From Candidatus Amesbacteria bacterium (GTDB taxonomy: Bacteria > Patescibacteriota > Microgenomatia > CAZETR01 > Amesbacteraceae): a stretch of 64,000 bases of DNA. The translations under genes were made by a program, and so were the position numbers. Where the stretch lies: positions 88,050-152,049 of the forward strand of contig CAVTQH010000004.1 of NCBI GenBank assembly GCA_963736875.1, read 5' to 3'. The notes beneath the pieces were generated by a model, which saw only the letters and a program-made list of their open reading frames with translations, was not told the origin of the DNA and did no database searches. This document shows, one piece after another, positions 7,004-58,275 of this stretch. Each line of letters begins with the position of its first letter. The first letter of the stretch is position 1.

Positions 7004-8647
7004 ATGCCTTTATCCTCCCGAGCCAAACCAGTAGTTTTGGCCATACTTGATGGTTGGGGTATTGCCCCCTCCGGACCCGGAAACTCCATCTCTCTTGCGT
7101 CAACCCCCAATATCACCTCTTACTGGAACAACTATACCCATACTCAGATTATTGCCCACGGAGAATCTGTCGGTTTACCCAAAAGGGAACCGGGTAACAC
7201 CGAAACCGGACATTTAAATCTCGGTGCCGGCAGTGTGGTTTATCAGGATCTTCCCAGAATAAATATGTCTATAGCTGACGGTAGTTTTTTCCAAAATCCC
7301 AGCCTTTTAGCTGCCGCCAAGCATGTTCTTGAAAATTCTTCTCAAATGCATTTAATGGGATTGGTGGGAGGAGGCGGGGTACATTCCGATCTTTCGCATT
7401 TCTATGCTCTTTTAAGGTTTTGCCATCAACAGCAGTTATCCCGTGTTTTTATTCATATTTTTACCGACGGCCGTGATTCCCCTCCCACATCAGCTTTAAC
7501 TTATATTCATCAGCTGCAATCTGTAATGTCGCGTGAGGGGGTAGGTACAATTGCCACAGTTATGGGTAGGTATTACGCCATGGACCGGGATTTCCGCTGG
7601 GACAGAACCCAGAAAGCCTATCTTTGCCTGACAAAATCGGTGGGTAAGACTGCGCCGAATATCGAAACTGCGGTGCAACAGGCCTACGATCTAAAACAAA
7701 CCGACGAATTTGTTGAACCAACAGTGATACTTGATTCCCAAAATCAGCCAATTTCTTCAATTAAATCAGGCGATGCCGCGGTTTTTGTTAACTTCCGCAT
7801 CGATCGTCCCCGGGAGCTGACCAAGGCATTTGTTCTGGATAATTTTGAAAAAACGGCCAATATTATTGGATTTGATCCCTATTCAATCGAATATCTGAAA
7901 AAGCACGATATCTCGGGTATTCAAATATCACAACAGCCTCCTTTTTCCCGGCCTGAAAAAATCGCAAATTTGTATTTCGTTACTATGACCGAATATGAAA
8001 AAAATCTTCCGGTTCACATTTCTTTTCCACCTCTGGCCGTGGAAAATCCGATTGGAAAAATCATATCCGAACACGGGTTGTCACAACTGCGTGTTTCCGA
8101 ATCTGAAAAAGAAAGATTTGTTACTTATTATTTTAACGGTCTCAAAGAAACTCCTTTTTCCCGCGAAGAACGGATAATCATTCCTTCCCCGAAAGTACCT
8201 ACTTACGATAAAAAACCCGAAATGTCTGCTTATGAAACCACCAAACGCCTGATTGAAGCCATTAAATCAAATAAATACGATTTTATCGTAATTAACTATG
8301 CTAATCCTGACATGGTGGCTCATACCGGAAATATCAAGGCAGCAGTCAAAGCCGTAGAAACAACCGATACCTGTATCGGCCAGCTTGTACCGGTAATTTT
8401 GGAATGCGGAGGAGTACTGCTTATCACCGCCGATCACGGAAACGCTGAGGAAATGGTTAATGTTGCCACCGGAGAGGTGGATACGGAACACAATGCCAAT
8501 CCTGTTCCGCTTATAATTATCGGTAACAATTTTAAGACCGGTGCTCAAATCAGCCAGGGAATTCTGGCCGATATTGCTCCAACGATTCTTAATCTTTTGC
8601 AGATACCCTTACCTTTTACCATGAATGGACGTAATCTTATTCCCTAG
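7004..8647 (+). CDS. gpmI: 2,3-bisphosphoglycerate-independent phosphoglycerate mutase
   Basis: N-terminal ILDGWGIAPSGPGNSI and the C-terminal metal-binding blocks of iPGM. 547 aa. Confidence 0.9.
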   Translation: MPLSSRAKPVVLAILDGWGIAPSGPGNSISLASTPNITSYWNNYTHTQIIAHGESVGLPKREPGNTETGHLNLGAGSVVYQDLPRINMSIADGSFFQNPSLLAAAKHVLENSSQMHLMGLVGGGGVHSDLSHFYALLRFCHQQQLSRVFIHIFTDGRDSPPTSALTYIHQLQSVMSREGVGTIATVMGRYYAMDRDFRWDRTQKAYLCLTKSVGKTAPNIETAVQQAYDLKQTDEFVEPTVILDSQNQPISSIKSGDAAVFVNFRIDRPRELTKAFVLDNFEKTANIIGFDPYSIEYLKKHDISGIQISQQPPFSRPEKIANLYFVTMTEYEKNLPVHISFPPLAVENPIGKIISEHGLSQLRVSESEKERFVTYYFNGLKETPFSREERIIIPSPKVPTYDKKPEMSAYETTKRLIEAIKSNKYDFIVINYANPDMVAHTGNIKAAVKAVETTDTCIGQLVPVILECGGVLLITADHGNAEEMVNVATGEVDTEHNANPVPLIIIGNNFKTGAQISQGILADIAPTILNLLQIPLPFTMNGRNLIP

Positions 8648-9341
8648 GTATATAGACCAATATTGTCACCTCACCTCTGAATGTTTTTTCATCATCCGGA
8701 CCGATATATTCAAATATTTTTGTCATTTCACGGGCTACAACAATCTGCGCACCGGGATATCGGTCTTTTATGTCTGTTAAAGTTATTTTAATTCTTTTTG
8801 GTGATTCGTAAATTATGGTAGTGGTTTCTTCCGGAATTTCCCATTTTTTCGATAAATATCCCAGAAATAAAAATTTGTTTGTCGGCAAACCTGCAGCACT
8901 CAATGCGGCGGTCACAGCCGACGCTCCCGGGATAGGAACAACACTAAAACCATGTTCTTTAGCCGATTTCACAACTTTATAACCGGGATCAGAAATAAGG
9001 GGAGTACCCGCATCCGAGACAATCGCCAGATCGGTCTTTTCCAGGATTTCCAAGACTTTTTGAACTTGACCCGCTTCATTCCAGTCACGTACGGAAATAT
9101 ATTTTGGGTTAATTTGACCCGTAATATTTAATAATCTGGAATATTTCTCTTCTAAAATTGTAATCAACTGGCCTGTCCTTCTGGTATCTTCACAGGCAAT
9201 GACCGGTACACTGAGTAACACTTTTATGGCTCTGATGGAAATATCCTCCAGATTGCCAATCGGAGTTGCTACTACGTATAATGTTCCCATATGGAGATTA
9301 TAAGTTATGTCGTTGATTTTATCCTTCATATCGATATTCAT
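8637..9341 (-). CDS. rsmI: 16S rRNA (cytidine1402-2'-O)-methyltransferase RsmI (tetrapyrrole-methylase fold)
   Basis: GTLYVVATPIGNLEDIS motif. The true start may be the internal Met at ~9290, which abuts the dedA ATG (CATATG). Confidence 0.8.
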   Translation of the reverse strand: MNIDMKDKINDITYNLHMGTLYVVATPIGNLEDISIRAIKVLLSVPVIACEDTRRTGQLITILEEKYSRLLNITGQINPKYISVRDWNEAGQVQKVLEILEKTDLAIVSDAGTPLISDPGYKVVKSAKEHGFSVVPIPGASAVTAALSAAGLPTNKFLFLGYLSKKWEIPEETTTIIYESPKRIKITLTDIKDRYPGAQIVVAREMTKIFEYIGPDDEKTFRGEVTILVYIPRE

Positions 9342-9938
9342 TTAGGGAGTCTGATTTCCGCTTACGGCAATTTCGTATATGCAATTCTGTTTCTGATTAT
9401 TTTTCTTGAAACCGGACTGGTAATTACTCCGTTTTTACCTGGAGACAGTTTGGTATTTGCCGCAGGTGCTTTTTCAGCCTTAGGTTCGCTTAATGTCTTT
9501 CTTGTATTTTTATTACTGTCTTTTTCCGCCATTTTGGGAGACACCGCAAATTACTGGATAGGTTATTTTTTCGGAAAAAAAATTCTCAGCCATCCCAAAT
9601 TACCTATCAATCAGGAACATATAGACAAAACCAATGCCTTCTTCAAAAAGCACGGAGGAAAAACCATTATTTTGGCCAGATTTATGCCTTTTATCAGAAC
9701 TTTTGCCCCTTTCGTAGCAGGTATAGGCAAAATGAACTATAAAAATTTTATCTTTTATAATTTTATCGGTGGTATTTTATGGGTAGGTATGTTCACATTT
9801 GTCGGATATTTTTTCGGCAATGTGCCTTTTGTAAAACACAATTTTTCCCTGGTTATAATCGCGATTATCCTTCTTTCAGTTTCTCCCGCTTTCTATGAAT
9901 TTATCAGACACAAAATTAAAAAAACCTCTAATTACTAA
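9291..9938 (+). CDS. dedA: DedA/SNARE-associated family membrane protein
   Basis: ETGLVITPFLPGDSLVFAAGA motif, multi-TM. Confidence 0.8.
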   Translation: MEIISYVVDFILHIDIHLGSLISAYGNFVYAILFLIIFLETGLVITPFLPGDSLVFAAGAFSALGSLNVFLVFLLLSFSAILGDTANYWIGYFFGKKILSHPKLPINQEHIDKTNAFFKKHGGKTIILARFMPFIRTFAPFVAGIGKMNYKNFIFYNFIGGILWVGMFTFVGYFFGNVPFVKHNFSLVIIAIILLSVSPAFYEFIRHKIKKTSNY

Positions 9939-10569
9939 TACCGTACTTCCGGATTACTCCTACAACTTTTCCCTGAATTCTAACCTTGTCTCCGGCCACA
10001 AAAATCGGTGACATTGTAGAATTTGCAGGTTCCAGCCGTACCCTTGTAGCTTCTTTAAAAAATCTTTTCAGTGTAGCAAAGCCGTTGTCGAGTAACGCCA
10101 CTACCACTTCACCGTTACTGGCGGTTTCCGTTTGTTCGATCACCACATAATCTTTATCAAATATTCCTGCTTCGATCATCGAATCACCTTTTACCTGAAG
10201 AACGAAACAACGTTTCTTGGGATTTACCATACTCGGAGGGACGCTGAATATGGAGTTCGGGTCGGTATAAGGTTCAATTGGTGATCCTGCGGCAATAAAA
10301 CCAAGAACCGGTAATTCTATAGCCGCTTCACTGGAAGTTCTTTCCGCGGCATTTTTGTCCAGTATTTCCAGACCTCTGACAGAACCCTCGTATTTCTTAA
10401 TAACTCCTTTTTTAACCATTGCCTGTAAATGTTCATGTACGGTAGCCAGTGAACTTACTCCCAAAGCCTTGGCAATCTCCTGTAAAGTAGGGGAATACCC
10501 ATTTGCCTGAATATACTGTGCCACAAAATCCAGAATTTGCCTTTGCCTGTTGTATAAAGTTACCGGCAT
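9928..10569 (-). CDS. lexA: LexA repressor (S24 peptidase)
   Basis: N-terminal wHTH (QRQILDFV...LQEIAKALG), and the C-terminal GDSM...K catalytic Ser/Lys dyad. Confidence 0.9.
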   Translation of the reverse strand: MPVTLYNRQRQILDFVAQYIQANGYSPTLQEIAKALGVSSLATVHEHLQAMVKKGVIKKYEGSVRGLEILDKNAAERTSSEAAIELPVLGFIAAGSPIEPYTDPNSIFSVPPSMVNPKKRCFVLQVKGDSMIEAGIFDKDYVVIEQTETASNGEVVVALLDNGFATLKRFFKEATRVRLEPANSTMSPIFVAGDKVRIQGKVVGVIRKYGISN

Positions 10570-10582
10570 ACATATAATCTAA

Positions 10583-10605
10583 CCGAAGAAAACACAAATG
10601 TCAAG
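10583..10605. promoter_or_regulatory. Candidate SOS operator / lexA -35 region shared by the divergent lexA and uvrB promoters
   Basis: CCGAAGAAAACACAAATGTCAAG. On the lexA strand this gives TTGACA-17-TAGATT. The same 23-nt layout (CCGAA-N9-AATGTCAAG) recurs upstream of the Y-family polymerase cassette at 54320..54342. Confidence 0.3.
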
Positions 10606-10608
10606 CCT

Positions 10609-12624
10609 ATGTTTAAACTTAACGCTTCATATAAACCAACCGGAGACCAGCCGGAGGCCATCAAAAAATTAATTTCCGGTATCAAATCAGGGACGAGACA
10701 TCAGGTGCTTTTGGGTGTCACCGGTTCCGGTAAAACGTTTTCGGTGGCAAATGTTATAGCTTCGGTACAAAAGCCCACTCTGATCATATCCCATAACAAA
10801 ACTTTGGCGGCTCAGCTTTACCAGGAGTTTAAGGAATATTTTCCCGACAATGCAGTCTCATATTTTGTTTCCTATTACGATTACTACCAGCCTGAAGCTT
10901 ATATTCCACAAACTGATACCTATATTGAAAAGGAAACCGATATTAATTCAGAAATTGATAAATTACGTCTCGCGGCTACTACCAATCTCCTTACCCGGAA
11001 AGATGTCATAGTGGTGGCATCCGTCTCCTGTATTTACAACCTGGGTTCTCCAGCGGAATACGGTAAAACCATACTAGAACTGGTTACCGGCTTCAAAGTC
11101 TCCCGTCAGCAAATTATTATGCGTCTAAATGACCTTCAGTATTCCAGAAGCGATTATGATTTTCACCGCGGGACATACCGGATCCGCGGTGAAGTTATCG
11201 ACATTTATCCGGCATATGAAGATACCGCGGTCAGGGTTCATCATGATGGTTTAAAAATCACCGGTTTGGAAAGACTCAATGCCTTGACAGGTGAAAATAT
11301 ATCAGAATATGGCAAACAAAATATCGCCATATATCCGACCAAACATTATATAGCTTCCAAGGATAATCAAAATCAGGTTATTTCTCAAATACACAGTGAC
11401 ATGTTAAACCGTTACGCAGAATTACAATCTCAAAACAAACCCCTTGAAGCACACCGGATTAAACAGCGTGTGGAATACGATATGGAAATGATCAGGGAGT
11501 TGGGGTATGTCAATGGTATCGAAAATTATTCCCGTTATTTCGACGGGCGTTCTCCCGGAGATCCCCCGTATTCTCTTTTGGATTATTTTCCCGAAGATTA
11601 TCTTCTAATAATTGATGAATCTCACATTACCGTTCCCCAGATCAGAGGCATGTATAACGGTGACAGGTCCCGCAAACAAACACTTATTGATTATGGATTC
11701 CGTCTCCCCAGTGCGTTGGATAACCGACCTTTAAAATTTCTTGAATTCGAACGTCGTATGGGACAGACTATTTATACATCGGCAACACCTGATGAATGGG
11801 AGATTTCCCAATCGATCCCCTATATTGTTGAGCAGTTAATCCGTCCTACCGGTCTGGTTGATCCCCAAATCGTGGTCAAACCGACAACCGGTCAAATACC
11901 TGATCTGATAACCGAGATTCAAAGCCGGGTTGGGAAAGGCCAACGGGTGCTGGTCACAACCCTAACAAAAAGAATGGCTGAAGATTTATCTGAATTTCTA
12001 AAAGATAAAGGATTAAAAGTTCATTATTTACATTCGGATATCGATACCTTGGAACGGCTGGATATTCTTTCTGATCTGCGAAGCGGAACATATGATGTGG
12101 TTGTAGGTATAAATCTGCTTCGTGAAGGACTGGATTTACCTGAAGTCTCATTGGTAGCAATTCTGGATGCCGATAAAGAAGGTTTTCTGCGTTCCCGGAC
12201 ATCTCTGGTTCAGACAATGGGCCGTGCGGCCAGGCATGTAGACGGGTCGGTCATTATGTATGCAGACCGCATAACCAACTCCATGGAAAAGGCAATTTCT
12301 GAGGTTAAAAGACGAAGAGAAGTACAAATCAAATATAACCATGACCATCATTTAATCCCGTTGTCTATAACCAAACCCATTCGCGAAAGGATTGTAGAAA
12401 AGACAGTGGACGAGCCGGTAAAACTTGACCCCAAACAAATTTTTTCCGGCCATGCTCTGGATGCCTCTGCGGTAGACTCCGATCTTGTTTCTCAGTTAAC
12501 TCCTCAAGATTTATCCAAACTCATTGGTTTGATCACCCGGCAAATGAATGCTGCTTCCAAACAGCTTGATTTCGAGCTGGCAGCCAAACTCCGTGATAAG
12601 ATAATTGAAATCAAAAATATCTGA
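10609..12624 (+). CDS. uvrB: Excinuclease ABC subunit B
   Basis: Walker A GVTGSGKT, helicase motifs, C-terminal UVR domain. 671 aa. Confidence 0.95.
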   Translation: MFKLNASYKPTGDQPEAIKKLISGIKSGTRHQVLLGVTGSGKTFSVANVIASVQKPTLIISHNKTLAAQLYQEFKEYFPDNAVSYFVSYYDYYQPEAYIPQTDTYIEKETDINSEIDKLRLAATTNLLTRKDVIVVASVSCIYNLGSPAEYGKTILELVTGFKVSRQQIIMRLNDLQYSRSDYDFHRGTYRIRGEVIDIYPAYEDTAVRVHHDGLKITGLERLNALTGENISEYGKQNIAIYPTKHYIASKDNQNQVISQIHSDMLNRYAELQSQNKPLEAHRIKQRVEYDMEMIRELGYVNGIENYSRYFDGRSPGDPPYSLLDYFPEDYLLIIDESHITVPQIRGMYNGDRSRKQTLIDYGFRLPSALDNRPLKFLEFERRMGQTIYTSATPDEWEISQSIPYIVEQLIRPTGLVDPQIVVKPTTGQIPDLITEIQSRVGKGQRVLVTTLTKRMAEDLSEFLKDKGLKVHYLHSDIDTLERLDILSDLRSGTYDVVVGINLLREGLDLPEVSLVAILDADKEGFLRSRTSLVQTMGRAARHVDGSVIMYADRITNSMEKAISEVKRRREVQIKYNHDHHLIPLSITKPIRERIVEKTVDEPVKLDPKQIFSGHALDASAVDSDLVSQLTPQDLSKLIGLITRQMNAASKQLDFELAAKLRDKIIEIKNI

Positions 12625-34241: not shown

Positions 34242-35249
34242 TTAATTCTTCTGTAGTTCCCTTAATTCAAACATTTTCAGAACGGGTATAGCTGCATTTC
34301 GGAATGCGTTTTCAACAGATTCACTTCTCATACCTGATTTCAGGCTGTCTTTTGCATTGCTTACAGGCAATCCGTTTTCGTCAAGCAATACATGGTCAAA
34401 ATTACTTGCCCCCCGGGTATAAGCAAAACCTACTGAAGTTTTATAAGCTTTATTCCACCAGGAAACTACATTACCGGCTGCAATCGATTCCATTGAGGTG
34501 ATAATTACCGTATCTTCGGGTTTTTTCTTCAATAAGTCGGAAGCCATTGTTCTGGCCCGGAGGTCAGATTGAAAATCATGCCAAAACAAATCCCCGGATA
34601 TTTCCATGACATTCCCTCGGCCCCCATACTTTAAAATCCGGATTTATTCTTCCTGACGCAGCATACAATTCCTCAGCCAGTGCGGTATCCATATATAAAC
34701 GGCTGGCCGGGTTGGGATCATCACTGCTCCAGAATTCCGGTTTCACTTCCCGGGTCAAAGCCTGATCTGCGCCATAGTACTGTAAATCGTAATCAGCCGA
34801 AATTGAATTAATACATACATCTCCGATTGCCGCACCTTTATTTGAAGATATTCCCCCGATTCCGCTTAATATCACTTCTTTAATCCGGTTTTGATAAACC
34901 TGCATAATATTTGTCATACAGGCGGTAGTTTTCACTTTACCGATACCGCTGACTACAACCAACACTGGTTGCCTGTGTATATATATCCCATATACCCCTT
35001 ATCGCACAGTGGGATCATTGCACTTACATCAGACTCTTTCTCAATTGTATTCATAAACGGTGCTGTTTCTCCCTGCCATATACCCAAAATATTTTTTGAT
35101 CCGAAAGGAGAGACTATTACCGACACCTGATCCGCCACATCGACTTTTTTCAACGATCCGGGTTTGACTCCGACAAAAATAATCCCTGTAATCAAGGCCG
35201 TAATTAGTAATACAAAAATCCCTACTTTTCTCATATGCAATAGCTTCAT
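34242..35249 (-). CDS. mtnN: 5'-methylthioadenosine/S-adenosylhomocysteine nucleosidase-like (PNP_UDP_1 family) with N-terminal signal/TM; broken into three ORFs in this assembly
   Basis: Three pieces, N to C: 34953..35249 (ILGIWQGETAPF ~ GAMEEE block), 34576..34965 (SGIGKV...SGIGGISS ~ GIGKV/GTAGG) and 34242..34607 (TSMESIAAGNV ~ MEGAAVA). Confidence 0.55.
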
Positions 35250-37214: not shown

Positions 37215-37293
37215 TGGGGTGGATGAGCGGATTTGAACCGCCGGCCTCCTCGTCCACAGCGAGGCGTTCTAACCAGGCTGAACTACATCCACC
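37215..37293 (-). tRNA. tRNA-His (anticodon GTG) with encoded G-1 and CCA
   Basis: Hand fold: G-1 plus GTGGATG/CATCCAC acceptor, discriminator C then CCA, anticodon loop CTGTGGA, T-loop TTCAAAT. Confidence 0.8.
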
Positions 37294-37318
37294 ATAAGCT
37301 ATATTTTATCTTATATTG

Positions 37319-37390
37319 CGCCCCTGAGAGGAATCGAACCTCTATCAACTGTTCCGAAGACAGTCACTCTATCCGTTGAGCTACAGGGGC
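37319..37390 (-). tRNA. tRNA-Arg (anticodon TCG)
   Basis: Hand fold: acceptor GCCCCTG/CAGGGGC, anticodon stem ACTGT/ACAGT with loop CTTCGGA, T-loop TTCGATT. No encoded CCA. Confidence 0.8.
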
Positions 37391-37549
37391 TGAATATACC
37401 ATAAATTTTAACACTTAAGCTTGTTTGCAACCCTCTAATATGTATACAATTAGGTAGTGATTTCCATCCTGCCTCTGTTTGTATCATTTTTTGCGCTGTT
37501 AAACATATTCATATTTTCCCCGCCATCCGGCTGTTCCTGCTCTACCGAT

Positions 37550-40500
37550 ATTGCCTCCGGCTGTTCTGGGTATTTCAAATTACGCCCCTACCGTCTATAT
37601 CAGTAATACTTCCGACGGTTACAATGCGGGGGGTGTTTTAAGTCAATCCAGCCTTGATGAACCTGCCATAAATCTCTCCACATACAATTCCACCGGTCCG
37701 GCTTCGCTTGATATTTATCAGGCTTCAATAAATGATGTTTTATCTTTTTTAACCTACGATTCCGAAAGCAAACAAAAACTTATGTTTGATTCTTCTCAAC
37801 TTTCCAAAGTTACTACTTTAACCACCAATATTTCTTCCTCCGGAGACAACCGCCTGCTTTTACCGATACAGGGAGAGGGTATTTGGTTTCTGAAAGATTA
37901 AATTCGGCCAAAACGAAAATTCCGCTTTTTTAATCCGTTCGGAAATCGAAGCCGTTGTAAAAGAAGGCGACAACAAGCTTCTTTTCTGGGTTCAAAATCT
38001 GACTACAAAAAAAACTGTTACCTCCGGTGTCTTAGAATTATTCAACCTTCTTGATTCTCCCCGGTCCCTGATCAAATCCGGTCTGGACGGTAAAGGTGTA
38101 ACAAGCATTTCTTACTCTCCTCAAACTTACGATGTCGCAATACTAACTTCCGATAATCACACCACCCTTATACCCATAAATATGCGTTATTTAAATTTCG
38201 GAGACCGTTACAATCAGTTTCTTCCCAGAAGCCGCATGTCACGGTATTTTATTTTTACCGACCGTCCGCTATATAAACCCGGTGATACGGTATATTACAA
38301 AGCCGTCATCCGGGATGATAACGACGTCCGATATTCCATACCAAAAGGCTTGGCTACAGTCCGGGCTTTTAAAGACTGGAATGTTCAAAGCGCATTTTTT
38401 TCCCAGACTCTCCCCGTCTCCGATAAAGGCACCATTACCGGACAATTCACTCTTCCGGTCGCCCAGGGAACGGGACACTTCCAAATCTCAATCCAAACCC
38501 AAAACCCCGGTGTCACATCCGGTGATTGGGAATATGAATCTTTCGGACAGGACAGTATCGGTTTTCAGGTCGAATATTTCCGAAAACCGGAGTACACCCT
38601 TGACGTCTCAACCCCCTATACTGAATATCGTCGCCGGTGATCAAATCGAGTTTACGGTCTCGGGTGCTTATTTTTCCGGTGCCCCGCTTAACCAGCAAAA
38701 CGTAAAATATTCACTTTACTCATCAAATTATTACGAATATGAATACCTTTTCAATAACCAAAATCTGCCGTCCGGCAGCAAATATTACGGCTACTGGAAC
38801 GGAAATAAAATCCAGGATGGTGAACTGACTTTAAACGGTACGGGACAGGCCAGCTTTTTAGTTCCTTCTTCCGACGGCAGATATAAATCCTCACGTTCAC
38901 AAATATTTTCCTTTGAAGTCCAATTTACTGACGAATCCGGAAATCCCGTACTGGCCAGAAAAAATATTCTGGTCTATCCCGCAGAGTTTAATATTTACCG
39001 CCGGAGTGGCTTTTATACCGGTCAAACAAACCGGCCGTTTGTCCTTCCGATAATTGTAAAAAGTATTCGCGGCAGTCGGATCAACGATCTCCGACTGACC
39101 GCCGGCATTCTCCGTGAAAGCTGGATTGCTCTTCCTTTGACACCAGGTCAAAAATATCCCACTTATGTAAAAGAAACCGAAAATCTTTCCTCATCTGTCC
39201 GCCATCACCAACTCCCTTGGTGAAGCCCAGTTTTCTTTTACTCCGGTAAAGACCGGTTCTTATACCTTTACCATCAGCGGTACTGATCAGAAAGGAAATG
39301 TTGTATCCAAAAACATGTACATTTGGATATCCGATACTACCCGCCCCACCCCAACCGGTCAGTATTATGAGGAGTTAAAGATAGAAACCGATTATCCCTC
39401 CTATCAGCCTGCGGATAAAGTAAATTTAAAAATTTGGTCTGATATCCCGGACCGGGATTTCCTGCTCACCTGGGAACGCGGCCGTGTCAATCGCTGGCAG
39501 ATCGTTAAGCTTTCAGGGCAATCCTCAAGCTTTACGCTGCCTCTGGAATATACCGATATTCCCAATATCTATATCACTGTCTCCGGTTTTTCTGAAAGTT
39601 CTTTCCTTTCGGATACCGTTAATGTAGATGTTTCTCCGGAAAGCCAGCGCTTAAATATCAGTCTTTCTCCCAACCTGAGCAGATACGGCCCCGGTCAGTC
39701 GGTAGTCCTTGACGTTAAGACCACTAATCAGCTTGGCAAACCTGTATCCGCTGACCTTGCCGTTTGGGCTGTTGATAAAGCCATATTCGAGCTTTCTGAC
39801 TCAAACGTCAGCGATATTTTTAATCGTTTTTGGTCAACCAGGGGCAATCAGACCAGCACCGGCCATTCACTTGAAAATATTTTGGTAAACACAGCTGAGG
39901 GAGGCGGCTGTTTTACAGCTGATACTAAAGTTTTAATGTCCGGTGGTTTTACCAGATCCATTGAAGACGTCAAACCTGGTGATACCATCCTGACCCGGGT
40001 ATCGGCAAACGATTCCCGCCTGACAAAAGCCAGGGTTCTGTCCACCCATTCTGCTACCGTTGACGGAATAATTATTTTAAATTCCCGTCTGAAAGTTACC
40101 CCCAATCATCTGCTTTGGGTAAATAATTCCTGGAAGACAGCGTCTCAAATCAAAAAGGGAGATATTCTTTCCAACTTTTCGGGCTCGTCAAACATTGTTA
40201 CTTCCGTTGAATGGCAAGCCGGTAAAATCCCCGTCTACAACTTAAAAATTGCAGATTTCCATACATATTTTGCCGAAGGAATCTGGGTCCACAATGACAA
40301 GGGAGAAGGAAGCGCCCGCTCGATATTTAAAGACACGGCATACTGGAATCCCACAGTTACCACCGACAGACTGGGTCAGGCCCAGGTAGTATTTACTCTT
40401 CCGGACAATCTCACTACCTGGACAATTGCTGCAGTCGGATCCACTGCAGACACCCAGGTGGGTCAGACTACGACGGAAATTATCTCATCAAAGGAAGTCA

Positions 40501-42539
40501 TTGTCAGACCGGTTCTTCCCAACCTGATTCGTATAGGAGACAAACTTCGGATTTCGGCTCTGGTGCACAATTTTACTGATGTTACTCAGGATTTTACCGT
40601 CGGCCTCAATTTTGACTCCGGCCAGATTACTCCTCCAGCCACTCATCAGCCAGTATCCATCTTACCCAATAATTTCCGCAGTTTTAGCTGGATTATTTCA
40701 CCGGATTCCGTAAATCCCGTCCGCCAAACTTACATTTTCGGCCCAAACCGCATCCGGTAAATCCGATTCTGTGCAGTCTGTTCTTGCCGGTCATCCCCTT
40801 CGGTTTTATGGAAACCAGTGCCCGGATCGGAAACGGAAATCAATCATATTCCGTCGAATTTCCCCCTGACGCGGATTTATCCCAATCTTCAATTACTCTT
40901 TCACTTGGCTTCAAACATTTTGGGAACCTTGCCTGCGGCTATGAAATACCTCATCGGTTATCCCTATGGATGTATCGAACAAACCACCAGCCGTCTGGTC
41001 CCGGCCATAATTACCAAAGCCAACCTGGATATTTTTTATGACGCTCTTGATCAGAAAGATATTACAAAAATTATTTCTGCCGGTCTTAACCGGTTATCCG
41101 CATTAAAATCCGTTGACGGCGGTTGGGGTTGGTGGCACTCTGTTCAAAATTCTGATCCTTTTATTACTTCGTATGTTCTGGAATATTTGTTCCTGGCCAA
41201 ATCTTCCGGCATCGAAATACCCGATGAACTTATAAAACCGGCTGTAAATTTTCTCAAGTCTTACAATCCCAAGGACGAAAATTCCCGTGTTTACAAGATT
41301 TACGGACTTAAATATTGCGGGTGAATCGGAAGGAAAAGAAAAATTAACAAATTTCGATGCTTATTCACCGGTATCTTTGGCATATGCCGTTATAAGCAAT
41401 GCCAAAAACGGAGACCAGAATCCCGATACCAACGGTTTAAAAAATCTTTTGTCCCGCTATAAAACCAGCGGGGACAATATTTATTGGGAAGCCGATTCTC
41501 AAAGTACTTTTCCTTCTTTGGAAGCCTCTACCGCCGTTTCGATCCGGGCAATTATCCAAGGAGGAGGGAACAGGGAACTGGCAGTCAAAGCCGCCCGTTA
41601 TCTGTCTGGGCAACCGCAAAAATAATTATTGGGCTAACACCTTCGCCACTGCTCAGATTATCAGAAGTATTACTGATCTTCACCGCACCGGTGGTGAAGC
41701 TGATCCCAATTTTTCTTATACGTTTAAATTTAACGACAGTTTGATAACCTCTGCCCAGATCACTTCCTCTGTCCAGCTTATTAAAGATATCGTTATTCCC
41801 GCCGCTTCAATAAAAATCGGATCAAATAAGTTCGATCTGTCATTCACCGGTACGGGACAAATATACAGTACGTTACTCCAAAATATCTGGCGTACTGATA
41901 AGAATGCCTCTCCCCAATCACATACAATTTCTTTATCCCGAAAATATGTAAACGACAAAGGAGAAGACTACACACTGGGAGTCGGTGACAGTGTTTCGGT
42001 TATTCTGACCGTTATCGGGTTTACCTCCTGATGCCCGTTATTTGGTCATCGAGGACTATCTTCCGTCCGGTTTGATACCTGTAAACACCAATCTCTTAAA
42101 CGAAAAGGCTGATAATGATTATTCCGTTTCCAAAGAGTATACGGCAAACGGTGCAATCATGTTTTCCCCGGTAATCGGTAACACGACATCATATTCATAC
42201 AAAGCCCGGGTAATTTCCCAGGGAGAATCAGTAGCCCCTCCCGCTATGGCGCAATTGATGTATCAGCCTGAAGTAAATGCCCTTAGCGAAACCAGTACTC
42301 TGATTACGGAGGAATTCAGCCGTTCTACCAAAACCCCGGTTGAAAATATCACCCGGTCAATTAAAAAATTCAGCCTTATCATTACCCCAAATTATTATTC
42401 TGGGATTATTAATTATCATTCCCCCTCCCTTCATCTTTTTAGACGATCAGAATCATCAAAAATCGTCACCCACCCCATCCTATTGAGTAAATTGAAAGCT
42501 GTCCAGTATTTTCCCAAAAGGCACCAACTCTTCATCTGA
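37550..42539 (+). CDS. Alpha-2-macroglobulin family thioester-containing protein (~1650 aa) with a Hint/intein-like insertion; reading frame changes ~9 times in this assembly
   Basis: MG-domain motif FIFTDRPLYKPGDTVYYKAV. Post-bait motif FKDTAYWNPTV...LPDNLTTWTI (equivalent to FPETWIW...PDTITEW). Thioester motif YPYGCIEQTTSRLVP. The ORF pieces 37551-37901, 37894-38640, 38282-39223, 39171-40760, 40818-41324, 41287-41625, 41741-42031 and 42042-42539 are collinear with A2M. Confidence 0.7.
39909..40295 (+). other. Hint (intein / bacterial intein-like) domain, 129 aa, inserted in the A2M bait region
   Basis: N-terminal CFTADTKVLM (block A), VTPNHLLWV (block B, TxxH), C-terminal VYNLKIADFHTYFAEGIWVHN (blocks F/G ending HN). 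The +1 residue is Asp, not Cys/Ser/Thr. Confidence 0.7.
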
Positions 42540-44825: not shown

Positions 44826-45119
44826 AATCCGATTTTGTTTCTGTAATCTCGGCTTTATCGGCTATCCCCAAGTCAAATTTGCTGGTTCCGCTGGCATCAC
44901 CGGTTGTCACAGCGACCGAACCGTCAGATTCCAAACCCGGTACTTTCAGCGCCTGGAATGCCTTTTCAATATCTTCATCTGCCCAACCGCTTTCAGCCAA
45001 TATTTTCCTAATTTCCGGATCAGTTATTCCGGCTTTAAGTTGCTCCCTGATATAGTCTACTAACTCCTGGTTCACTTCCTCAAGTTTATCATGAAAACTT
45101 TCCCAATTCCCGTATTTTG
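44806..45119 (-). CDS. Hypothetical small acidic protein
   Basis: The ORF-table ORF 44806..45222 runs into tRNA-Pro, so the real start must be downstream of 45120 (non-ATG start likely). Confidence 0.25.
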
Positions 45120-45191
45120 TCGGAGACGAGGGAATTGAACCCTCTACCTCTCGGTCCCAAACCGAGCGTTCTACCGATGAACTAGTCTCCG
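45120..45191 (-). tRNA. tRNA-Pro (anticodon TGG)
   Basis: Hand fold: acceptor CGGAGAC/GTCTCCG, anticodon stem CTCGG/CCGAG with loop TTTGGGA, T-loop TTCAATT. Confidence 0.85.
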
Positions 45192-45195
45192 TATG

Positions 45196-45280
45196 TGCCG
45201 AAGGCGGGACTCGAACCCGCATGAAGTGTTATCTTCGGGGGCTCTTAAGGCCCCTGCGTCTACCATTTCGCCACCTCGGC
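45196..45280 (-). tRNA. tRNA-Leu (anticodon TAA), type II
   Basis: Hand fold: acceptor GCCGAGG/CTTCGGC, anticodon stem GGGGC/GCCCC with loop CTTAAGA, long variable arm, T-loop TTCGAGT. Confidence 0.8.
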
Positions 45281-45303
45281 ATATACAAATTATATTATAA
45301 TTA

Positions 45304-45389
45304 TGTCGGTAATGGGCGAGTGCTGAAATTGGTATACAGGCATGCTTGAGGAGCATGTGGCCTTAATCGGCCGTGCAGGTTCAAGTCCT
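45304..45389 (+). tRNA. tRNA-Leu (anticodon GAG), type II
   Basis: Hand fold: acceptor GGGCGAG/CTCGCCC, anticodon stem CATGC/GCATG with loop TTGAGGA, long variable arm. Confidence 0.8.
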
Positions 45390-45391
45390 GT

Positions 45392-45409
45392 CTCGCCCAC
45401 CGCCTGCCG
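45392..45409. repeat. GC-rich hairpin element GCCTGCC-GGCG-GGCAGGC; its exact reverse complement recurs at 63168..63185
   Basis: 18-nt near-palindrome between tRNA-Leu(GAG) and tRNA-Leu(CAG). The inverse-orientation copy lies after rplT. Confidence 0.5.
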
Positions 45410-45425
45410 GCGGGCAGGCCCATCC

Positions 45426-45511
45426 GGGCGGATGGCGGAACGGTAGACGCGCTAGCTTCAGGAGCTAGTGACCTTAAAACGGTCGTGGAGGTTCAAATCC
45501 TCTTCCGCCCA
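45426..45511 (+). tRNA. tRNA-Leu (anticodon CAG), type II
   Basis: Hand fold: acceptor GGGCGGA/TCCGCCC, anticodon stem CTAGC/GCTAG with loop TTCAGGA, long variable arm. Confidence 0.8.
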
Positions 45512-45531
45512 CAGTACAATTGCTATAATAT

Positions 45532-45605
45532 GGACGATTAGCTCAGCTGGTTAGAGCGCCTCTCTTACACAGAGGAGGTCGGGGGTTCGAGCCCCTCATC
45601 GTCCA
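45532..45605 (+). tRNA. tRNA-Val (anticodon TAC)
   Basis: Hand fold: acceptor GGACGAT/ATCGTCC, anticodon loop CTTACAC, T-loop TTCGAGC. Confidence 0.85.
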
Positions 45606-45629
45606 CAAATAAAAAGCAAACAATCTCAA

Positions 45630-45702
45630 GCCGAGATAGCCAAGGTGGTCACGGCGGGCGCCTGAAGAGCGTCAGATTGAGGTTCGACTCCTCATCTCGG
45701 CA
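45630..45702 (+). tRNA. tRNA-Phe (anticodon GAA)
   Basis: Hand fold: acceptor GCCGAGA/TCTCGGC, anticodon stem GGCGC/GCGTC with loop CTGAAGA, T-loop TTCGACT. The D-arm is atypical (3-bp stem, 11-nt loop). Confidence 0.75.
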
Positions 45703-45737
45703 CACCCTAATTTAGCTTTGTTTATGTGTTATATTAG

Positions 45738-56797: not shown

Positions 56798-56883
56798 TAT
56801 CCGCTTGCACTCAAACCCGATTCCGGGATAGAATAAATTATCAATATCAAGCCTTATTTATTCATATGATAAATATAATTTCC

Positions 56884-58275
56884 GATGAACCTCCCCTTAA
56901 ACGTTCTTACCGATTTTTTACGGATTCCTTCCGTTTCCACCCAGCCTGAACAGGCGGGTGAATGTCTTCGGGCTGCAAATTATATTTCAGATCATCTTTC
57001 TTCTCTTGGGTTTCTCTTCCCGGCTTCTTCCCGGTAAAGTCCATCCCTCAGTCTTTGCCCAACTAACATCCGCAGCGGAAGACATCCGACAGTCTTAATT
57101 TACGGCCACTACGATGTCCAGCCGGCAGGAGCTCCCAGCCAATGGACTACCCCTGCTTTTGAACCGGATATCAGAAAAGGACGTATTTATGCCCGGGGAG
57201 CCACCGATAACAAAGGTCAGCTGATGGTTCAGATTCATGCGGTCAGCCAACTTATTAATAAGTACGGTCAAAATAATTTACCTCTGAATATTAAATTTCT
57301 GATTGAAGGTGAAGAAGAAATCGGCAGCCCGAGCGTTATGGATCAACTGACCGCATATCCCGAACTGTTTCGATACCGACTATGTAATTATTTCAGACAC
57401 CGAAATGCTGGGAGCCAACCGGCCGACTCTTGACGTCTCGTTAAGAGGTGTTATGGACATAGAAATTTCTGTTCAGACCGGATCTCATGATATCCATTCC
57501 GGCCAATTCGGAGGTTTGGCACCAAATCCGGCTTTTATTATGTCTCACTTATTGTCGCTTCTGAAAAATGGCCGTGACCGGGTATTAATTTCGGAATTTT
57601 ATTCGGATATTATTCCACCTACACCCAAAGAACTCGACGATCTGCGCCGTCACGCTCCCGATGTCAAAGATGTTCTTAAAGAAGGTCATTTTTTCTATCT
57701 TGGAGGCGGAGAACCTCATTTACCCATCAATCGTCGCCGTTGGTATGAGCCGACTCTGGACATTACCGGTCTCGATTCCGGTTATACCGGACATGGTACC
57801 AAAACAATTATTCCCGGCCGGGCCGATGCCAAACTTTCAATCCGACTTGGTCCCGTACCAGAATCCGCAAAAAATCTACTCCAATTTGGTTAATTTCCTG
57901 CAAAAACACGTCTCCAAAAATGTTGTTTTATCAGTTTCCCGTTCGGAAATTGCCCTGCCGTACCGGGCTCCTATAGAACATCCGGTTTACCACTTGGCGG
58001 GTCAGTGTCTGGAAAGCATTTTCGGCCACCCGGCAGCCTTTGTCGGTCAGGGCGGATCCATAGGTTTCGTCCCGGTTTTGGCTAAATCTTTAAACGTTCC
58101 CTGTGTCCTGATTGGTTTTGGTTTACCCGATGAAAATCTTCATGCCCCCAATGAACACTTTTCATTGTTCAACTTTTCCAGGGGTATTGAAGCTATGACT
58201 TTGTTTTACTCCCGTCTCGCCGATTTAAAACCTGTAGCATTAAAAAATCAGGAGACTAACAACTCACCCGAATAA
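56884..58275 (+). CDS. M20-family metallopeptidase (ArgE/DapE/dipeptidase-like); fragmented into at least five frames in this assembly
   Basis: PTVLIYGHYDVQPAG...WTTPAF...GRIYARGATDNKGQ metal-binding block, plus later M20 dimerisation and C-terminal blocks spread over ORFs 57224..57433, 57405..57893 and 57661..58275. Confidence 0.65.

Follow-up and report, generated by a model that had tools for sequence, protein, structure and literature searches.

A Hint domain, predicted to process itself, at the bait position of alpha-2-macroglobulins from genomes mostly labelled as Candidate Phyla Radiation

A Hint domain encoded within an alpha-2-macroglobulin gene

The DNA analysed here is a stretch of 64,000 nucleotides from Candidatus Amesbacteria bacterium (contig CAVTQH010000004.1, positions 88,050 to 152,049 of the forward strand), called the window below. 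It carries an alpha-2-macroglobulin (A2M) gene containing a domain of the Hint type, related to inteins and bacterial intein-like (BIL) domains. A preliminary description, made from the letters alone, had placed a 129-aa Hint at 39909-40295, and we found the translation of this segment of the plus strand to be identical to the one described: CFTADTKVLM...VTPNHLLWV...VYNLKIADFHTYFAEGIWVHN. The domain corresponds to residues 199-327 of the open reading frame (ORF) 39315..40760, itself one fragment of an A2M gene of about 5 kb (~37457-42486) with many breaks in its frame. The domain begins with Cys-Phe, its last three residues are Val-His-Asn, and Asp-Lys-Gly follows.

39909..40295, + strand: Hint domain (type-A BIL / PT-HINT class), Cys1 to Asn129, from translation, Pfam, PDB matches and a structural model
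39909..39911, + strand: Cys1 codon, predicted nucleophile of the N-S acyl shift, invariant in 80/80 aligned Hints
40098..40109, + strand: block B, T64-P-N-H67, with Thr64 and His67 invariant in 80/80
40290..40295, + strand: block G, His128-Asn129, predicted site of Asn cyclisation, invariant, the Asn lying outside the pattern of the family search

The Hint blocks that had been named, A (C1), B (T64-P-N-H67), F (VYNLKIADFHTYFA) and G (VHN129), are all present and are invariant in 80 homologues. The best Pfam match of the domain was PT-HINT (PF07591; E=1.8e-13, 51.3 bits for a gathering score of 27.7), and Vint was slightly over its cut-off. Four further Pfam profiles scored under their cut-offs on the window Hint: Intein_splicing (PF14890; 31.0 for 35.8), the type-B BIL profile Hint_2 (PF13403; 22.1 bits for 28.4, block G His-Asn being present), Hedgehog Hint (PF01079; 26.8 for 29.7) and Hom_end_hint. 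With the NCBIfam models, intein_Nterm (TIGR01445) gave 20.0, below its cut-off of 24.5, and intein_Cterm (TIGR01443) gave 16.5, just above 15.6.

Sequence matches in the PDB were headed by the polymorphic-toxin Hint 8w20 (E=1.9e-8), together with the C. thermocellum BIL 2lwy (E=1.2e-6; the block-F motif VYN(L/F)K..DFHTY is common to both) and the Mtu RecA mini-intein. An AlphaFold model of the whole 481-aa ORF, when submitted to a fold search, led to A2M/C3/C5-type matches only (C5b, C3, ECAM, SaA2M, human A2M, CD109), so a model of the Hint by itself was needed. The latter had a predicted local distance difference test (pLDDT) score of 91.4. Foldseek against the PDB placed Tetrahymena BIL2 first (TM-score 0.86, E=1.6e-11), with the C. 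thermocellum BIL (2lwy) at 0.82-0.85; mini-inteins (0.70-0.78) and Hedgehog Hint (0.72-0.76) both stood behind the BILs.

The segment 39909-40295 is thus confirmed as a Hint domain, far beyond chance. Sequence and predicted fold support a position closest to the type-A BIL / PT-HINT group and not to canonical inteins, and by its profile match and by the rule of a missing +1 nucleophile the domain classifies with PF07591 / type-A BIL. This agrees with the preliminary description, which had called it BIL-like and had named PF07591, PF13403 and PF14890 as the profiles to be compared over residues 199-327 of the ORF. No second copy of the A2M or of the Hint was found in the 64-kb window.

Position of the Hint within the A2M host

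The segments flanking the Hint are the following.

39375..39794, + strand: A2M bait-region domain (A2M_BRD), N-terminal flank (Pfam PF07703, E=5.6e-17)
39900..39908, + strand: Gly-Gly-Gly right before Cys1, end of the N-extein, positions -3 to -1 (translation)
40296..40304, + strand: Asp-Lys-Gly, C-extein positions +1 to +3 (translation)
40335..40601, + strand: A2M (MG7) domain, C-terminal flank (Pfam PF00207, E=6.7e-20)

In the residues of the ORF, A2M_BRD covers 21-160 and A2M 341-429, with the Hint between them. The F-x-x-T-x-Y-W motif, said earlier to come directly after the Hint, begins 10 residues past Asn129. The closest Hint-less relative (P0005, encoded at 7500-11300 of locus L084) is 60% identical in the flanks and has poly-Gly at the insertion point, where it reads AEGGGGGGESRTVFKDTAYW in the alignment and the window reads ...AEGGG|Hint|DKGEGSARSIFKDTAYW. 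Alignment of Hint-containing with Hint-less relatives showed a clean insertion of exactly Cys1..Asn129 within the Gly-rich linker, which defines the junctions and bears out the proposed bait slot. The bait linker differs in length and sequence among relatives, and about 8+6 Gly-rich residues are left in the bait loop around the Hint. The 481-aa model is confident over the Hint; residues 185-196 and 329-338 look like flexible linkers, since pLDDT is below 50 there.

The N-terminal flank aligns with residues 568-610 of complement C5 and the C-terminal flank with 766-864, the motif R-x-x-F...W starting from 766. In C5 numbering, the beta/alpha processing site and C5a are located between residues 610 and 766. 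The Hint slot is the topological equivalent of the beta/alpha processing site and anaphylatoxin domain of C3/C4/C5. Residue 175 of the ORF aligns with ECAM residue 899, and by linear extrapolation residue 199 would fall at about Arg923 of ECAM (phmmer gave only C5 for the C-terminal flank). The disordered bait of ECAM is Arg923-Leu942 (PMC4498604). Linker insertion, C5 flank alignment and ECAM bait correspondence support the Hint being at the bait position. It is probable, as part of the explanation proposed below, that the Hint has largely replaced the flexible bait linker of MG6. Apart from the folded domain that fills its bait loop, the host is a genuine bacterial thioester A2M.

A family of A2M-Hint proteins

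Homologues were collected by scanning a single genome of each GTDB species, with the Hint C-terminal motif [TS][YF]FAx[GN][IVF][WY]VH as the search pattern; 157 loci were confirmed and 80 of them were fetched. A Hint-bearing A2M is therefore present in at least 157 species-level genomes. According to record titles, which are the only source of the lineages given here and which include many third-party annotation bins with implausible generic labels, the carriers are almost all CPR/Patescibacteria (Candidate Phyla Radiation, CPR; Microgenomates and Parcubacteria lineages, WWE3, Saccharibacteria, Peregrinibacteria).

Most of the 80 fetched loci consist of one unbroken ORF of 1,640-2,300 aa with the Hint inside. 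In a representative library at 50% identity, 331 proteins match at E<=1e-30, and among the best 150 cluster representatives about 135 have flank, Hint and flank contiguous, mostly in proteins of ~1,650-1,800 aa. A search for homologous proteins had given fragments of at most 839 aa, as if all copies were broken; the genome scan and the representative search, with mostly full-length proteins, overturned this idea. Public annotations are generic, 'alpha-2-macroglobulin family protein' or, for one homologue, 'polymorphic toxin-type HINT domain-containing protein'. The A2M with a Hint in its bait is thus widespread and conserved in public CPR genomes under generic annotation only.

The architecture of an intact member (L004, 1,701 aa) is, by Pfam, MG2 - A2M_BRD - PT-HINT - A2M - TED - bMG10, TED being the thioester domain, and the PT-HINT scores of intact homologues range from 30.8 to 59.3 bits. 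L004 (CAZBTH010000009.1) is the homologue closest to the window copy; another intact one is the Daviesbacteria locus L008 (JACQIX010000008.1). The CxEQ thioester is found in 64/77 evaluable homologues. The 13 members without CxEQ have kept the Hint with intact catalytic residues, as is seen in a Peregrinibacteria-like group. Among 66 long homologues, 62 have an N-terminal hydrophobic anchor and 43, essentially those of the thioester class, a C-terminal transmembrane helix followed by a polar tail. With these two anchors the Hint is extracytoplasmic, and both halves of the protein would stay anchored.

PT-HINT as best Pfam family, the match to 8w20 and the toxin-type name of one homologue could also suit a pretoxin Hint, as in polymorphic toxins, that serves solely to release the C-terminal part as a diffusible effector. 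We regard this as highly improbable. In the window and in L004 the downstream part is, by Pfam, a regular MG7-TED-bMG10 half of an A2M with no toxin domain, and in the thioester class this half ends in its own transmembrane anchor. Moreover, in the established architecture of A2M and C3, MG6 comprises sequence on both sides of the bait slot, so the two halves should stay associated.

Conservation of the Hint and of its junctions

Across the 80 Hints, Cys1, Phe2, Thr6, Asn58, Thr64, His67, Asp85, VYN109-111, His128 and Asn129 are invariant; Cys1, TxxH, Asn129 and the flanks lie outside the search pattern. The Hint length in the family, 127-130 aa, indicates that there is no endonuclease domain or remnant. 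The junctions follow a common form, GG|CF...[WY]VHN|[Q/D/E]-K-G. On the N-terminal side, Gly-1 is present in 78/79 members and Gly-2 in 72/79. On the C-terminal side, the +1 residue is Gln (38), Asp (23), Glu (11), Asn (2-3), Gly (2), Ala (1-2), Ser (1) or Cys (1), hence Q/D/E in 72/79; Lys+2 is found in 77/79, a Lys at +2 or +3 in 79/79 and Gly+3 in 70/79, with variable positions from +5 to +8. The Asp+1 of the window (HN|DKGEGSARSIFKDTAYW), which the preliminary description had singled out, is one of the forms that the rule of the family takes, in which Q/D/E at +1 precedes a Lys-Gly pair that hardly varies. Related Hints that are not carried by A2Ms show Phe, Tyr, Lys or Ile at +1, and the [Q/D/E]-K-G rule of the C-flank was found only in A2M-borne Hints.

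Two loci, L065 (HN|CKGG) and L029 (HN|SKDG), have a potential +1 nucleophile and could be natural cases for canonical splicing. Outside the A2Ms, proteins of ~750 aa (P0036-P0048, P0055-P0057) carry tandem abutting PT-HINT domains (...THN|CFPAGT...LVHN|FKYG(S)CF...), in which the terminal Asn of one Hint stands 0-8 residues before Cys1 of the next.

Compared in pairs, the Hints are on average 46% identical and the flanks (2x200 aa) 32%, and the distance matrices of Hint and flank are correlated (Mantel r=0.52, p=0.001). The Hint is thus the best-conserved part, within a tolerant variable linker, and it tracks its host; a useless insert should decay or vanish there, which argues that it is not a selfish element. 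Conserved junction, absence of a +1 nucleophile and co-divergence with the flanks together point to a fixed autoprocessing module similar to type-A BILs and not to a canonical intein.

These data bear on two other readings of the domain. A canonical selfish mini-intein, spliced without trace and contributing nothing to the A2M, would account for Cys1, TxxH and His-Asn, for the intein_Cterm score just over its cut-off (with intein_Nterm under), for the good fold matches to mini-inteins at 0.70-0.78 and for a linker that, after excision and ligation, would have about the length seen in the Hint-less P0005. Yet Cys, Ser or Thr occupies +1 in just 2 of ~80 members, with Asp in the window, Pfam Intein_splicing remains at 31.0 under 35.8, the insertion is in a variable Gly-rich linker and not in a conserved active site, there is neither endonuclease nor remnant, and a useless insert in so tolerant a linker would be easily lost, when the Hint in fact co-diverges with its host and is more conserved; we hold this reading to be very unlikely. 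A catalytically dead relic, acting only as a bulky spacer or bait-like loop, would be in keeping with an activity that is so far a prediction for A2M-Hints and with the disrupted gene of the window. It has hardly any plausibility for us, as all catalytic positions are invariant in ~80 species-level sequences whose flanks are ~32% identical, and as Gly-1 and Lys+2/Gly+3 are conserved though outside the fold.

Reading frame of the window gene

In a tblastn comparison the window A2M matches aa 52-1687 of the intact L004 (1701 aa) in colinear order, in the successive frames 3>1>2>3>1>2>3, with three further frame shifts between 40700 and 40930. The reconstructed gene has, in order, a GTG start, an N-terminal transmembrane helix, MG domains, BRD, Hint, MG7, TED, bMG10 and a C-terminal transmembrane helix.

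37457..42486, + strand: whole A2M-Hint gene, reconstructed by tblastn against L004 and three-frame translations
37457..37519, + strand: probable N-terminal signal-anchor/transmembrane helix (V)ISILPLFVSFFALLNIFIFS, in frame 2, one +1 shift before the frame-0 body
38245..38526, + strand: MG2 domain (Pfam PF01835, E=3.1e-14)
40971..40982, + strand: thioester motif Cys-Ile-Glu-Gln (GYPYGCIEQT) in TED (Pfam PF07678, E=6e-9)
42045..42272, + strand: bacterial MG10 (bMG10) domain (Pfam PF17973, E=1.1e-10)
42376..42441, + strand: probable C-terminal transmembrane helix LSLPQIIILGLLIIIPPPFIFL, in frame 1 after the frame-0 body
~37896, 38626, 39194, 40719, 40783, 40907, 41310, 41605 and 42020, + strand: nine single-base insertions (+1 each)

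The C-terminal helix is followed by a polar tail, and the stop codon is at 42484-42486. One surplus base accounts for each of the nine mapped breaks, and deletion of these nine bases gives a single open frame of 1,675 codons with zero internal stops. The N- and C-terminal helices are each separated from the gene body by one further +1 shift, likely near 37520 and 42380 respectively. The corrected protein retains 97% of 164 family-conserved positions, for a median of 98.2% in intact members.

Two explanations of the split ORFs were discarded. An alternative genetic code was rejected, the breaks being frame shifts and not in-frame TGA or TAG codons; an apparent in-frame stop at 40758 falls where the true frame is frame 1. 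Homopolymer slippage was not supported either: the break sites are outside long homopolymer runs, and runs of >=6 are scarcer in the gene than on average in the window. The bias of all nine (probably eleven) insertions towards the same direction may reflect an assembly artefact or an unusual mutational process.

The chance that the window gene is a decaying pseudogene, its breaks being real mutations and not consensus errors, we put a little short of even. Nine to eleven breaks in one gene speak for decay, as do the splitting of at least two other window genes while UvrA and other long genes are intact, and the existence of other broken A2M-Hint copies (L001/L002, identical in two samples). 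However, all breaks are single-base insertions in one direction, removal of nine leaves 1,675 stop-free codons, and the closeness of the corrected protein to the intact median is unlike an old pseudogene, as are eleven same-direction shifts with no other damage. The window copy is either mis-assembled, through local consensus errors, or very recently inactivated.

Two other loci of the window are split as well. A gene for an M20/M25/M40 peptidase (~56880-58275, + strand) is distributed over at least three frames, mostly by +1 shifts, with M20_dimer and Peptidase_M20 matches in overlapping ORFs. On the minus strand, at 34242-35249, three successive overlapping ORFs (98, 129 and 121 aa) resemble one frame-shifted gene; the middle one carries a nucleoside-phosphorylase-like motif, 'VVSGIGKVKTTA', and the two pieces tested had no Pfam match. 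In L001, the thioester motif is missing at 9190-9240 (identical in L002, from a second sample), where GYPYG is followed by TAA and then by TTSRF. This pattern fits a 9-nt deletion within TGT-ATT-GAA-CAA that removes CxEQ and creates the stop; the same gene has an in-frame stop and a frameshift further upstream.

Proposed mechanism and outcome

We consider it probable that the Hint is a catalytically competent type-A BIL/PT-HINT, fixed and vertically inherited in a membrane-anchored, mostly CPR-labelled A2M subfamily. Its fold, catalytic residues and their conservation, position and topology were described above, and from them we infer the following chemistry. After export and folding, Cys1 would attack the carbonyl of Gly(-1), and an N-S acyl shift would give a Gly-Cys thioester. 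Asn129 would then cyclise and cut the Asn|[Q/D/E] bond, so that the Hint would excise itself, no external protease being needed. With no +1 nucleophile, the branched intermediate of class 1 inteins could not form. Type-A BILs, which have His-Asn and no +1 nucleophile, mainly cleave, and splicing is possible for them through attack of the released alpha-amine on the thioester (PMC4031507).

Three outcomes may be envisaged by analogy. The first, which we propose tentatively, is a nicked two-chain A2M, a protease-independent equivalent of the bait or convertase cleavage that would prime or trigger the conformational switch. Bait cleavage untethers and triggers A2Ms (PMC4498604), and self-excision of the Hint would for this reason be a protease-independent step of processing or activation, analogous to the removal of the anaphylatoxin domain by furin and convertases in C3/C5. 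The second, which is more doubtful, is that the halves would be re-joined by aminolysis of the thioester, either through the new alpha-amine or through the epsilon-amine of Lys+2, in the latter case by an isopeptide bond as for BIL2. The retention of the CxEQ thioester by 64/77 members suggests that the spring-loaded state still matters, which argues for re-ligation or regulated processing. The third, transfer of the N-terminal half to a lysine of another protein, seems distinctly unlikely.

BIL2, which is flanked by ubl4 and ubl5, joins ubl4 to a substrate lysine by an isopeptide bond (PMC8616854), and with the GG|C junction and the conserved Lys+2 a similar isopeptide chemistry is conceivable in A2M-Hints. 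A more speculative extension, which we regard as unlikely, is that the Hint would be a second autocatalytic warhead of the A2M, a lysine in cis or in trans resolving the Gly-Gly thioester formed at the bait, as a protease-independent trigger. In cis, Lys+2 would produce a 'branched splicing', in which an isopeptide bond would link the A2M halves and a single residue would remain as an N-terminal stub. In trans, the lysine would belong to a bound protease or to the surface of the host cell and would lead to an enzyme-free, ubiquitin-like covalent capture, which would work even in members without the TED thioester. With either option, self-excision would act as a convertase-like trigger of an A2M/C3-like switch on the surface of presumed epibionts.

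Several points weigh against a competent, fixed autoprocessing module. Conservation at the ten positions of the search pattern was ascertained by the scan itself. As P0005 of L084 is without a Hint, the domain is dispensable or has been lost at least once. Conserved catalytic residues are also expected of any intein that must splice for the sake of its host protein. A protease trap that nicked itself constitutively at the bait would, it seems, be discharged. For every member, cleavage, splicing and conjugation alike are predictions from homology alone, and the window copy itself, with its broken frame, may be non-functional or mis-assembled.

Neighbouring genes and other features of the window

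In the flanks of the A2M-Hint genes L004-L083, a Memo-like (AmmeMemoRadiSam B-type) gene lies directly downstream on the same strand in 22/80, a same-strand CapA/PGA_cap-like gene is found in 10 loci, and a same-strand gene similar to class-A penicillin-binding proteins is situated upstream in 6, recalling E. coli yfhM-pbpC. None of these Memo-like, CapA/PGA_cap-like or penicillin-binding-protein-like neighbours stands beside the window copy. In the Hint-less locus L084, as in L001, the A2M is immediately followed by a Memo-like gene; the A2M of L084 is split into several ORFs, on a contig with a coverage of 2.3x. The window contains fifteen tRNA genes, seven of them clustered at 45119-45703, and tRNA-His/tRNA-Arg, on the minus strand at 37215-37390, directly precede the A2M gene. 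The plus strand has 14,735 C for 12,009 G, a marked excess of C, though it carries most genes.

Implications

What defines the A2M/complement family is activation by an external protease, which cuts a single loop. In a large group of genomes mostly labelled CPR/Patescibacteria, a predicted self-cleaving, thioester-forming domain is found in exactly this activation loop, from which one would predict that a thioester protein is processed or activated independently of proteases. The reaction may involve isopeptide chemistry, for which the sole precedent that we found is the ciliate BUBL system. To the Hint and intein field it would offer a clear example of a BIL that serves a function of its host, in a structural context that is defined, with a conserved junction signature and dozens of intact natural variants on hand. 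As regards CPR biology, the protein in question is among the largest conserved surface proteins of these bacteria. With the junction rule GG|C...HN|[Q/D/E]KG, spliced and cleaved termini can also be looked for directly in metaproteomes.

The author of the preliminary description knew of no such arrangement, and our full-text literature search likewise found no description of a Hint, intein or BIL in a macroglobulin, an A2M or a CPR A2M. A study of CPR bacteria discusses large membrane proteins with A2M domains as a possible defence against host proteases, with no Hint mentioned (PMC8080830).

Comparison with known systems

The type-A BILs (2LWY; PF07591) resemble the A2M-Hint most closely: both have Cys1, TxxH, His-Asn, no +1 nucleophile, ~130 aa and no endonuclease, and both are sited in a variable region of a secreted or surface protein. 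The A2M-Hint differs in its host, a conserved multidomain A2M in whose activation/bait loop it is inserted, and in being fixed and co-diverging across a large, mostly CPR-labelled group with its own [Q/D/E]-K-G rule. BIL2 of Tetrahymena thermophila BUBL1 (6Y75/6TMM) is the best fold match, and the A2M-Hint has an N-extein ending in Gly-Gly and a Lys at +2; however, BIL2 is a eukaryotic, intracellular, ubiquitin-like conjugation device, the identity is just 21-23%, and Lys+2 of the A2M-Hint is a candidate nucleophile only. In contrast to type-B BILs, the A2M-Hint has block G His-Asn, with PF13403 under its cut-off. Class 1 mini-inteins (Mtu RecA, Ssp/Npu DnaB) have the same fold and the same catalytic blocks, but the A2M-Hint is without a +1 Cys/Ser/Thr, is not in a conserved site of an essential protein and is not sporadic. 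With the Hedgehog Hint the G|CF junction alone is in common, the A2M-Hint ending in His-Asn and running straight into A2M sequence.

On the side of the host, the baits of human A2M, E. coli ECAM/YfhM and Salmonella SaA2M are, like the Hint slot, within MG6/BRD between A2M_BRD and A2M, with disordered linkers flanking and a CxEQ thioester downstream. Known baits are unstructured and are cut by the attacking protease, whereas the Hint is folded and predicted to cleave itself, and the family is anchored by a transmembrane helix and not by a lipobox. The processing site and anaphylatoxin domain (ANA) of C3/C4/C5 offer a parallel, a globular domain in the same MG6 loop, whose removal in C3/C5 gives a new alpha'-type N-terminus just upstream of the R-x-x-F...W strand. 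The two domains are not homologous: ANA is helical, non-catalytic and removed by furin and convertases, whereas the Hint would remove itself.

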